A stretch of DNA of 64,000 nucleotides from Polaribacter sp. GTDB lineage: Bacteria > Bacteroidota > Bacteroidia > Flavobacteriales > Flavobacteriaceae. This document shows, one piece after another, positions 60,388 to 62,977 of the stretch. The notes beneath the pieces were generated by a model. It made no database searches and was not told the origin of the DNA. It saw only the letters and a list, made by a program, of their open reading frames with translations. The DNA lies in assembly GCA_029238315.1 (NCBI GenBank), contig JAQWGI010000017.1, positions 105,698 to 169,697 on the forward strand, in the 5' to 3' direction. Made by a program: the position numbers and the translations under genes. Position 1 is the first letter of the stretch, and every line of letters begins with the position of its first letter.

Positions 60388-61554
60388 ATGAATAACATGT
60401 ACTTTACTGAAGAACACGATGCGTTTAGAGAGAGTTTTCGTGATTTTTTACAAAAGGAAGTAGTTCCGCATATTGATAAATGGGAAGAATCTGGAACAAT
60501 AGAACGTTTTATCTGGAAGAAATTCGGTGAAATGGGTTATTTTGGTTTGAATTCTCCTGAAGAATATGGTGGGTTAAATTTAGATATTTTCTATACCATT
60601 ATTTTTCTAGAAGAATTACAGAAAATTAATTCAGGTGGTTTTGCAGCTGCTATGTGGGCACATGTATATCTAGCAATGACTCACGTTACAAAAGAAGGTG
60701 ATGATAGAATCAAAAACGAATATTTAACGCCAAGTATTAATGGTGATAAAATTGGTTGTTTGTGTATATCTGAGCCATTTGGAGGTTCTGATGTTGCAGG
60801 AATGAGAACAACTGCTGTTAAAAAAGGAGATTCGTATGTAATTAATGGTTCTAAAACCTTTATAACAAACGGAGTTTATTCTGATTATTTAGTAGTTGCA
60901 GCAAAAACAAATTTAGAAGATAAACATAAAGGAATGAGTATTTTTATCATGGATAGAGATACACCAGGTATTTCATCAACAAAATTAAATAAGTTGGGCT
61001 GGCGGGCTTCAGATACTGCAGAAATTGCATTTGATAATGTTGTAATTCCTTCAGATAATTTAATGGGAGAAGAAGGAAAAGGTTTTCCTTATATAATGCA
61101 GCACTTTGCTTTAGAGCGTTTAATTATGGCAATTAATGCACATGCTAGAGCAGAATATGCGGTAGAATATGCAATACAATACATGAGTGAACGTCAGGCG
61201 TTTGGCAAAACCCTAGATAAGTTTCAGGCCTTGCGTCATAAAGTAGCAGAAATGGCAAGTGAAGTAGAAATGTGTAAAGAGTTTAACTACTCAATTGCAA
61301 AAAGATTAGACAATGGTACGTATGTTGTTAAAGAAGCGAGTATGGCCAAAATGTTATCAACCAAAATGGCAGATTCTGTAATTAGTGATAGTTTGCAGTT
61401 GTTAGGAGGTTATGGTTATATGGAAGATTACCCAATGGCGCGTTTACTTCGAGATAGTAGATTAGGTCCGATTGGTGGTGGAACTTCTGAAATTTTGAAA
61501 GAAATTATCGCAAAAATGATTATCGACAAAAAAGATTATAAGCCAGTAACTTAG
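60388..61554 (+). CDS. Acyl-CoA dehydrogenase
   Basis: CISEPFGGSD, GSKTFITNG, LGGYGY, GGTSEI. Confidence 0.95.
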   Translation: MNNMYFTEEHDAFRESFRDFLQKEVVPHIDKWEESGTIERFIWKKFGEMGYFGLNSPEEYGGLNLDIFYTIIFLEELQKINSGGFAAAMWAHVYLAMTHVTKEGDDRIKNEYLTPSINGDKIGCLCISEPFGGSDVAGMRTTAVKKGDSYVINGSKTFITNGVYSDYLVVAAKTNLEDKHKGMSIFIMDRDTPGISSTKLNKLGWRASDTAEIAFDNVVIPSDNLMGEEGKGFPYIMQHFALERLIMAINAHARAEYAVEYAIQYMSERQAFGKTLDKFQALRHKVAEMASEVEMCKEFNYSIAKRLDNGTYVVKEASMAKMLSTKMADSVISDSLQLLGGYGYMEDYPMARLLRDSRLGPIGGGTSEILKEIIAKMIIDKKDYKPVT

Positions 61555-61660
61555 TTTTTGAGATCATTTTGCGAAAATGTTTTTTCATTCGCAAAAATGA
61601 TTATCGACAAGAAAGATTATAAGCCAGCTACTTAGTTTTTGAGATCATTTTGCGAAAATG
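61508..61660 (+). repeat. 72-bp direct repeat (61508-61579 and 61589-61660) duplicating the acyl-CoA dehydrogenase 3' end
   Basis: 69/72 identical. The copies encode AKMIIDKKDYKPVT* and AKMIIDKKDYKPAT*. Confidence 0.95.
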
Positions 61661-61710
61661 ATTGTAGAAAAAAGATTTATTAATTTAATAATAAAAAATC
61701 CGAATTAAAA

Positions 61711-61740
61711 TTGTGTATTCATAAATTGTCTGTACATTTG
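61711..61740 (+). promoter_or_regulatory. Consensus Bacteroidota promoter of rpsU
   Basis: TTG at 61711-61713, a 19-nt spacer, TACATTTG at 61733-61740. Confidence 0.8.
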
Positions 61741-61763
61741 CAGACCAATTTAAAGAACGACAT

Positions 61764-61774
61764 GAAAGGAGGTG
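61764..61774 (+). promoter_or_regulatory. Extended Shine-Dalgarno of rpsU
   Basis: GAAAGGAGGTG, 7 nt before the ATG. I noticed no comparable SD before any other gene in the window. Confidence 0.9.
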
Positions 61775-61781
61775 CCAACAT

Positions 61782-61979
61782 ATGTTAATTATACCAGTAA
61801 AAGAAGGAGAGAATATCGATAGAGCTTTGAAACGTTTCAAAAGAAAATTTGATCGTACCAAAACAATGAAAAACTTACGTAACAGAAAGCATTTTACAAA
61901 GCCATCTGTAGCGAAAAGAGCTCAAAACATAAAAGCCTCTTACGTTCAAAGATTAAGAACTCAAGAAGAAGTTGGTTAG
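61782..61979 (+). CDS. rpsU: 30S ribosomal protein bS21
   Basis: V-K-E-G-E-N-I-D-R-A-L-K-R-F-K-R-K and F-T-K-P-S motifs, with Tyr54. Confidence 0.96.
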   Translation: MLIIPVKEGENIDRALKRFKRKFDRTKTMKNLRNRKHFTKPSVAKRAQNIKASYVQRLRTQEEVG

Positions 61980-62000: not shown

Positions 62001-62031
62001 AAATCCTGTCAATTTTGGCAGGATTTTTTTT
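62001..62031 (+). terminator. Intrinsic terminator after rpsU
   Basis: AAATCCTGTC / GGCAGGATTT stem followed by a T-run. Confidence 0.8.
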
Positions 62032-62092: not shown

Positions 62093-62977
62093 ATGATTGC
62101 TTCTTTTTTAGAGTATCTAGTTTTAGAAAAAAAATACTCCAAACATACTGTTGTTGCTTATAAAAAAGATCTTACTTCTTTTTATGAGTTTTGTAAAGAT
62201 GTATATGATATTGGGAGCCTTACAGAGGTTAATTACGGCCAAGTTAGGTCTTGGATAGTAGTTTTGGTAGAAAAGGGATTGACCAATAATTCAATTAATA
62301 GAAAAATAAGTTCTCTGAAATCTTTTTATAAATTTTTACAAAAAACTTCTCAAATCACTTCAAATCCGTTAGTAAAACACAAATCATTAAAAGTTTCAAA
62401 AAAAGTACAGGTTCCTTTTACCTATAAAGAAATCAGCAACGTCATAGAGAGGTTAGAAACACACAAAGATTTCAAATCGCTAAGAGATCGCTTGATTGTT
62501 GAGTTGTTTTATTCTACGGGAATGAGAAGAGCAGAATTGGTTAATCTTAAGTTAACATCAATTAATTTTCAATCTAAAACTATAAAAGTTTTAGGTAAGA
62601 GAAATAAAGAAAGGTTGATTCCTTTAATTCCTTCAGTGATTTCAACTGTACAAGAATACTTGCCGTTAAAAAAAGAAATCAATTCAGCTACTCCAACTTT
62701 GTTCATTACGATAAAAGGAAAGAAAATATACGAAACACTTGTTTATAGAGTAATAAATAATTACTTTAGTAATGTTTCCTCGAAAGTAAAAAAGAGTCCA
62801 CATATCCTGAGGCATTCTTTTGCAACACATTTACTAAATCAAGGGGCAAATTTAAACTCGGTTAAAGAATTGTTAGGACACGCAAGCTTAGCGTCAACCC
62901 AAGTTTATACACATAATAGTTTAGAGAAGATAAAACAAGTGTACAACCAGGCTCATCCTAGGAGCCATAAAAAGTAA
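62093..62977 (+). CDS. xerC: XerC-type tyrosine recombinase
   Basis: TGMRRAEL (R), GKRNKER (K), HILRHSFATH (HxxR), LLGH, TQVY (Y). TAAATTTG -7 element at 62063-62070. Confidence 0.85.
   Translation: MIASFLEYLVLEKKYSKHTVVAYKKDLTSFYEFCKDVYDIGSLTEVNYGQVRSWIVVLVEKGLTNNSINRKISSLKSFYKFLQKTSQITSNPLVKHKSLKVSKKVQVPFTYKEISNVIERLETHKDFKSLRDRLIVELFYSTGMRRAELVNLKLTSINFQSKTIKVLGKRNKERLIPLIPSVISTVQEYLPLKKEINSATPTLFITIKGKKIYETLVYRVINNYFSNVSSKVKKSPHILRHSFATHLLNQGANLNSVKELLGHASLASTQVYTHNSLEKIKQVYNQAHPRSHKK

Follow-up and report, generated by a model that had tools for sequence, protein, structure and literature searches.

We identified a tandem array at the 3' end of an acyl-CoA dehydrogenase (ACAD) gene in a 64,000-nt stretch of Polaribacter sp. 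DNA (contig JAQWGI010000017.1 of assembly GCA_029238315.1; hereafter the window). Each unit of the array repeats the last codons and the stop codon of the gene and leads into a hairpin whose left arm copies coding sequence of the gene in inverted orientation. The same architecture was found downstream of the same ACAD ortholog in ~60 species from ~25 genera of the Flavobacteriaceae, with a single locus in each genome. On balance, the array is probably best explained as a conserved stem-loop module of the 3' untranslated region (UTR), which would grow and shrink by slippage or unequal recombination.

Organization and copy number of the array

The ACAD gene (60388..61554, + strand, as are all features described here) is an open reading frame of 388 amino acids with Pfam matches to Acyl-CoA_dh_N/M/1, and the protein had no NCBIfam equivalog match above its cut-off. 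It ends with the protein tail ...IIAKMIIDKKDYKPVT and a TAG stop codon at 61552-61554. Tandem Repeats Finder (TRF) reported a period of 81 bp, 1.9 copies and a score of 285 for the array, and the segments 61508-61582 and 61589-61663 (75 nt each, offset by 81 bp) were 95% identical, bearing out the duplication of the gene end described in a first-pass annotation of this DNA. Repeat unit 1 (61508..61588, 81 bp) comprises the last 15 codons and the stop codon, a T-rich spacer, the left hairpin arm and the loop. It is opened by S0, the coding copy of the hairpin arm (ATCGCAAAAATGATTATCGAC, 61507..61527), which consists of the codons I-A-K-M-I-I-D. The left arm of junction hairpin 1, S'1 (ATCATTTTGCGAAAATG, 61563..61579), is an inverted copy of S that contains a conserved GCGAAAAT motif, and it is followed by a TTTTTT loop (61580..61585) and by the right arm, CAT plus TCGCAAAAATGAT (61586..61601), which is also the beginning of gene-tail copy 2. 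The whole junction hairpin reads ATCATTTTGCGAAAATG / TTTTTT / CATTCGCAAAAATGAT at 61563-61601.

Gene-tail copy 2 (…AKMIIDKKDYKPAT, 61589..61635) retains an Ala allele and its own copy of the stop codon, TAG at 61633-61635. Behind it lies a terminal hairpin (61644..61662) made of S'2 and a partial S2, which forms a perfect 8-3-8 palindrome, ATCATTTT-GCG-AAAATGAT. The palindrome recurs with one mismatch at 61563-61581, and a scan of both strands allowing up to three mismatches gave four matches, compared with 0.12 expected by chance. Read from the sequence, the array closes with the degenerate start of a third unit at ~61652..61683, GCGAAAATGATTGTAGAAAAAAGATTTATTAA (also read as GCGAAAATGATTGTAGAAAAAAGATTTATT). 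Both the perfect palindrome at the unit end and the degenerate third start had been noted before, and both were confirmed. The differences between unit 1 and copy 2 are AAA to AAG, GTA to GCT and one T/A at the unit end. The first two were as stated earlier. Their concentration in the coding part is not a general feature: in other species, 26 comparisons of internal units showed differences spread evenly over the parts of the unit (3-6% per site). Such an even spread would be expected if whole units are homogenised.

The array is a single locus in the 2.24-Mb genome, and the unit is absent elsewhere. In a whole-genome TRF run, the ACAD tail was the only gene end with such a non-coding repeat, while the remaining long-period repeats were judged intragenic from their units, without a comparison with gene calls. 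A genome-wide habit of gene-end duplication was thereby ruled out. The gene tail itself (61504-61539) gave a TRF period of 16 nt (ATTATCGACAAAAAAG; 2.3 copies, 90% matches), so the sequence that would have seeded the array is internally repetitive.

The duplication is not an assembly artefact, as the repeat is present in all of nine independent assemblies, from metagenomes or genomes, in which the identical 388-aa ACAD protein is encoded. Three of them contain two copies (L153, L155 and L157) and two contain three copies in the order KPVT, KPVT, KPAT (L152 and L154), named after the residues that distinguish the tails; in three others the array is interrupted by 100-N scaffold gaps (L156, L158 and L159), and in the remaining one the contig terminates within it. 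The added unit of the three-copy assemblies is identical to the gene-proximal unit, and the KPAT unit is the last in every case. The array varies in copy number within the species (two, three, or unresolved at three or more) and, with its head-to-tail units and whole-unit polymorphism, is a variable-number tandem repeat (VNTR) or minisatellite. Short-read assemblies of several species break or hold N runs inside the array (L005, L007/L042, L015, L121, L134, L156, L158 and L159), so that a copy number taken from a draft genome is a lower bound.

The repeat unit across the Flavobacteriaceae

Across species the unit measures 75-92 bp and keeps the same order of parts: S, the 8-12 remaining codons up to and including the stop, a T-rich stretch, S', AAA, X, a loop, X' and the S of the next unit. 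S corresponds to the codons I-A-K-M-V/I-I-D (ATCGCAAAAATGGTAATCGAT). S' is its reverse complement, e.g. GATTATCATTTTTGCGA, the inverted copy of the codons I-A-K-M-V-I being TTTTTGCGA, and it begins 1-25 nt past the stop codon. Each junction hairpin takes its right arm from the beginning of the following gene-tail copy. The apical arms X and X', which flank a loop of 3-7 nt, are short and species-specific. The gene is not their source, and they are complementary in spite of their differences (GCG/CGC, ACG/CGT, AACC/GGTT, AACCC/GGGTT and TTG/CAA, with ATG/CAT in the window). The AAA bulge after S' is near-invariant.

At synonymous sites the proximal units agree with the gene of their own host (0-3 mismatches), and S' follows the wobble base of the Ala codon: GCA is matched by TGC, GCC by GGC, and GCT by AGC or, as a G.U pair, by GGC, and genes with ATT-GCx have an S' with ...GCAA. 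The GCGAAAAT motif is near-invariant and is retained even where the complement of the gene would differ, as in the ATC-ATC-GCC or CTC-GCT genes. Because it is kept where a faithful inverted copy would differ, it is not simply re-templated from the gene, and its conservation in the sequences points to one origin and/or functional constraint.

We surveyed 122 ACAD loci, consisting of named species representatives and targeted fetches of ACAD relatives, and found clear extra tail copies at 35 of them, with periods of 75-91 bp; seven more had the hairpin and a decayed copy. Congeneric genomes likewise have, behind the ACAD 3' end, tandem copies of the gene tail of the genome in question. The array-bearing genera include Tenacibaculum, Polaribacter, Aquimarina, Gelidibacter, Salegentibacter, Haloflavibacter, Gillisia and Zunongwangia, and one species has about eight units (L145). 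In another (L116 of G233), the last unit is directly followed by a second, unrelated microsatellite of ~8 GGAAACA / AGAGACA heptamers.

A covariance model of the junction hairpin, R1, detected 20 further genomes (18 genera) among 401 evenly sampled Flavobacteriaceae, each at a single locus with a spacing of 83-92 bp, and 19 of the 19 assessable matches lay directly behind the same ACAD ortholog. This rate of 5% is a lower bound, since the hairpin of the window (61560-61606) scores just 34 bits and is missed under stricter filters. Across 301 genomes sampled from the order, R1 matched only in the window's own genus, with nothing outside the family; the large genus g190 yielded no hairpin in this sample. 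A lone S' without a copy of S was never seen in array-less genomes.

The array is present in about a third of close relatives. On the ACAD gene tree 25 of 100 taxa carry it, and well-supported branches force at least 17 state changes, an approximate count given a misregister in long-tailed sequences of the tree (branch length 10 in two Aquimarina rows). 'Polaribacter uvawellassae', the nearest named relative (94% amino-acid identity), is without the array that the window's species has.

Hairpin folding and competing explanations

Every junction was found to fold, with energies of -11 to -26 kcal/mol and a mean shuffle z of -4.25, and native arms reached -17.0 kcal/mol, compared with -12.0 kcal/mol for chimeras of arms from different species. 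Covariation in 16 hairpins was 0.235 versus 0.089 after shuffling (0 of 500 shuffles as high), with slid partners at 0.03-0.06. Among 96 distinct model-aligned hairpins it was 0.264 versus 0.107 (again 0 of 500), with slid controls at no more than 0.083; this alignment was fitted to the model and includes a few antisense matches, and hence is biased towards structure. The pair at the Ala wobble occurred as UA (47), GC (18), AU (17) and GU (7), and the apical pairs showed 4-5 pair types. RNAalifold on a plain MAFFT alignment, in which the variable loop was misregistered, gave no structure, and the structural evidence comes instead from single-sequence folds, chimeric-arm controls, a hand-given structure and the covariance model.

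The two strands were not equivalent. In 30 of 33 species the mRNA-sense strand folded more stably than the complementary strand, and R1 scored the same hairpin about twice as high in the sense as in the antisense direction. Mismatches between the arms, counted without an energy model, were of the G.U type in 44 cases and of the A.C type in 4 (p = 1.5e-9, without phylogeny correction). The covariation and the strand signature are compatible with selection acting on a single-stranded hairpin of the sense strand, most simply RNA.

We consider it likely that selection on the mRNA-sense strand keeps the hairpin, that the element is old, arose once and is lost scarlessly, and that the tail copies are passengers. 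As the unit is wholly derivable from the gene, the element would have been founded by a duplication with an inverted junction. The array is presumed to lie in the ACAD 3' UTR and would be transcribed as such, because canonical terminators, where present, lie beyond the last unit. The hairpin would be the selected part of the unit, and the tail copies would ride along, with slippage or unequal crossing-over keeping them uniform with the gene. Copy number would shift through slipped-strand mispairing or unequal recombination, and the presence of two versus three copies within the species indicates that whole-unit gain or loss occurs. Scarless loss would result from recombination between the gene tail and the last copy, which deletes S' and the remainder. 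As to function, the stem-loops are tentatively assigned a role as 3'-end protection or processing barriers for ACAD mRNA, by analogy with the repetitive extragenic palindromic sequences (REPs) and bacterial interspersed mosaic elements (BIMEs) discussed below; a close variant of this role may be that the GCGAAAAU bulge is recognised by a docking factor.

A downstream copy may also replace the real end of the gene, which would account for the KPVT/KPAT difference. KPAT is the majority tail among relatives and, judged from this sister-genome comparison as the first-pass annotation had suggested making it, is the ancestral tail; the gene in the window has shifted to KPVT, and the distal copy has KPAT. 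Among close relatives the pattern is reversed in G246 (A in the gene, V-like in the copy) and mixed in G151 (V-A-V). Given these mixed and reversed patterns, the gene end and its copies evidently exchange, and contraction of the array appears able to swap the last 15 codons of the gene. The earlier idea that the copies are different alleles, or a spare C terminus, survives in a weaker form, in that the distal KPAT is the older allele and tails are evidently exchanged; a terminus supplied by an integrating element is not supported.

Several observations weigh against a selected RNA hairpin. Sister species often differ in its presence, and some two thirds of close relatives do without it, hence the element is dispensable. 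The distal units are the most diverged (e.g., 1, 4 and 8 mismatches in L113), and within arrays the linker was conserved at least as well as the arms. Neither the covariation counts nor the G.U bias were corrected for shared ancestry, and a sense-strand single-stranded DNA hairpin would yield the same G.T signature. Moreover, S' can pair equally well upstream: in 48 species the mean predicted energy was -19.2 kcal/mol with the coding copy and -17.1 kcal/mol with the downstream copy. The array could instead be a neutral by-product, with one template-switch event followed by neutral minisatellite evolution, in which quasipalindrome correction renews the arms and the hairpin merely promotes slippage. 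Whole-unit polymorphism, labile presence, distal decay and even differences without sparing of the arms are all in line with this, and we regard it as a serious, though less likely, rival. A 20-nt inverted repeat should vanish at saturated synonymous divergence, yet S' tracks GCA, GCC, GCT and ATT; the apical stems, which the gene does not template, covary; the unpaired AAA bulge is near-invariant; and the ratio of 44 to 4 is not predicted by template-switch correction. Scarless loss is easy, so retention in ~25 genera needs selection or re-creation, and the shared GCGAAAAT deviation speaks against re-creation. The proposal of hairpin-driven slippage or template switching in the first-pass annotation is supported for changes in copy number, given the two versus three copies within the species, and does not account for the cross-species covariation or the G.U bias. 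The upstream pairing could also serve a translation-sensing switch of register, in which ribosome occupancy of the last 15 codons would decide, unit by unit through the whole array, whether S' pairs with the translated S0, in a fold that encloses the stop codon, or with its untranslated copy S1. Translation would in this way be coupled to decay or processing of ACAD mRNA or to read-through towards rpsU. The two registers are comparable in predicted energy, the minimum-free-energy fold of the window as naked RNA pairs S0 with S'1, and the start of S' 1-25 nt after the stop codon lies within or adjoins the footprint of a terminating ribosome. Where the copies differ, S' fits the upstream partner better at 27 junctions and the downstream partner at 13 (7 equal), but decay of the distal copies largely explains this excess. 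X and X' covary solely in the downstream register, and the sequence after the array varies (rpsU promoter, terminator or other genes) with no evident output element; we therefore consider such a switch improbable.

Two other explanations invoke the downstream genes. The next gene, rpsU (bS21, 61782..61979), has a canonical terminator at 62001-62026 and, read from the sequence, a putative promoter TACATTTG at 61733..61740, which fits the Bacteroidota -7 promoter consensus, TAnnTTTG; ...TTTGCAGTCC is conserved in relatives. The inverted repeat TTTTGCGA...TCGCAAAA upstream of the promoter and the lack of a canonical terminator in the ACAD-rpsU interval of the window would agree with a DNA operator, or with an unconventional terminator that insulates rpsU from ACAD read-through, and a duplicated operator or terminator had been proposed at the outset. 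Such a role is very improbable. The distance between the arms varies by >10 nt among species (~10 to 22 nt), so the half-sites are not at the fixed spacing of a dimeric-repressor operator, and a G.U asymmetry is meaningless in duplex DNA. A scan of 61555-61781 found no intrinsic terminator, and the hairpins are followed by A-rich tail copies and not by a U-tract. Nor does the array substitute for a terminator, as canonical terminators were equally frequent after arrays (35%) and after array-less genes (31%). A link to rpsU was likewise rejected: rpsU is downstream of 22 arrays and absent downstream of 14, and array-less relatives manage with ACAD-rpsU spacers of 90-120 nt. The remaining proposal of the first-pass annotation, the scar of an element that integrates into this gene end and brings a replacement terminus, would make the tandem copies attL/attR remnants, possibly produced by the XerC-like recombinase encoded at 62093-62977. 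It could draw on the palindrome that closes the duplicated gene end, on the allele-like difference between the copies and on the position of this tyrosine recombinase gene 0.5 kb downstream. We find it hardly credible, since the units are contiguous in ~60 arrays, with no integrase or cargo DNA between the repeats in any of them and no shared element-borne core sequence, and the copies follow the host's own synonymous sites. The predicted island with the same core at both ends was not seen in relatives: relatives with 2-3.6 kb of ordinary genes between ACAD and rpsU (G012, G005, G006 and G007) have no second tail copy, and the one island seen next to an array, in G017, is flanked by a duplication of rpsU rather than by ACAD tails. 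Arrays are equally present without an adjacent rpsU, and presumably without the recombinase gene that follows it.

The neighbours of the array are genes for a symporter, a ComEA-like protein, rpsU, a XerC-like recombinase and hpf. The region upstream of rpsU (61733-61781) is strongly conserved across the family, with …TACATTTGCAGTCC… and then GAAAGGAGGTGC ahead of the ATG, in agreement with the -7 promoter motif. In several Polaribacter-like genomes (L008, L017, L021, L090, L095, L105, L128 and L134), an element of ~90-110 nt (GGGCGTTCCCTAAAGGTCGGGCTTTC...CAATCCCTAACGCAAA) lies between ACAD and rpsU, which from its sequence looks like a dispersed miniature inverted-repeat transposable element, a REP-like repeat or a structured RNA. 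In the congeneric complete genome G017 (L165, G017:C1:3682800-3692400), a 300-bp rpsU segment is duplicated beside the ACAD array, the repeats (591-890 and 9146-9445 of L165) being 98% identical and 8.5 kb apart. They bracket an insertion sequence with a DDE transposase, an extracytoplasmic function sigma factor, a FecR-type anti-sigma factor and a SusC/SusD pair, and the segment looks like an insertion resembling a polysaccharide utilization locus, or a duplication, at rpsU.

Other identities of the unit were considered and rejected. A translated C-terminal extension or read-through product does not suit periods of 81, 85, 91, 88, 86 and 76 bp, which are mostly not multiples of three, and a 12-aa mini-open reading frame in each unit would have lost its Met codon to Ile (ATA/ATT) in L005, L071, L078 and L080. 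A dispersed REP/BIME/REPIN repeat was excluded by the single locus in the unit's own genome and by one locus per genome in 20 genomes of the family. For a diversity-generating retroelement, no reverse transcriptase was present among the neighbouring genes, and the differences (A>G, T>C and A>T) are not adenine-specific. No TAnnTTTG promoter motif was seen by eye inside the units.

Comparison with known systems

The array is apparently undescribed, with no Rfam family and no literature match found. Rfam 15 returned only sub-threshold chance matches to hairpin-shaped miRNA and snoRNA models for the window and nothing for the arrays of five other genera, and a search of a paper library found no description of the locus. 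The transcriptome paper on F. psychrophilum (PMC9723704) does not mention the locus.

If the interpretation as a 3' UTR stem-loop module is true, the array would be a conserved cis-element of marine Flavobacteriaceae, a family with little-explored RNA biology, and its non-coding arm would have to co-evolve with the synonymous changes of a protein-coding gene. The locus would offer a natural system for compensatory evolution between coding and non-coding sequence, for concerted evolution at a gene end, including replacement of the C terminus, and for selection set against scarless loss. It also disrupts short-read assemblies, with contig ends or N-gaps in at least seven genomes or assemblies, and is a candidate VNTR for strain typing of Tenacibaculum and Polaribacter-like bacteria. 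Array carriers in culture include Tenacibaculum holothuriorum, Gelidibacter gilvus, G. japonicus, Salegentibacter agarivorans, Aquimarina sp. SS2-1 and Haloflavibacter putidus, and its function is thus directly testable.

REPs and BIMEs are often tandem, are transcribed with the upstream mRNA, do not act as terminators and vary in copy number among strains, and they have been proposed to form a barrier to 3' exonucleases. The palindromes of enterobacteria are said to act as stabilising stem-loops in 3' UTRs, reportedly from the work of Newbury et al. in 1987 and of Higgins et al. They are imperfect palindromes that directly follow a stop codon, and the ACAD array shares this position and has a predicted hairpin. 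However, REPs are dispersed in hundreds and are linked to REP-associated tyrosine transposases (RAYTs), whereas the array is confined to a single locus at one ortholog across the family, and its hairpin arm is a copy of the gene's coding sequence.

As in bacterial VNTRs or minisatellites that overlap a stop codon, such as the intergenic repeats of the mycobacterial interspersed repetitive unit (MIRU) type, the array has units of tens of bp, whole-unit polymorphism, concerted evolution and decay at the edge. Ordinary VNTRs, in contrast, are lineage-specific and short-lived, while the array is orthologous in ~25 genera and has a covarying hairpin and a conserved bulge. Template-switch duplications with an inverted junction, and the correction of quasipalindromes, have reportedly been described by Ripley and by Lovett and co-workers. 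The ACAD unit resembles their products in being derivable from the gene as a direct copy of the tail plus a ~25-nt inverted copy at the junction, and its hairpins favour slippage; yet template switches are one-off events that predict neither retention across genera, nor a G.U bias, nor covariation of untemplated apical stems.

The tandem RNA modules of 3' UTRs, such as the five iron-responsive elements (IREs) of the transferrin-receptor mRNA, likewise consist of repeated, covarying stem-loops with a conserved unpaired motif, to which the AAA in GCGAAAAU would correspond. By this analogy, repeats of a bulge motif downstream of one gene suggest docking sites for a factor or a nuclease. Unlike such modules, the ACAD repeats contain the duplicated coding tail with its stop codon, and the element is often lost. 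Compared with all these systems, the array is unusual in belonging to one ortholog across a family, with one hairpin arm that is duplicated coding sequence and another that co-evolves with its synonymous sites.

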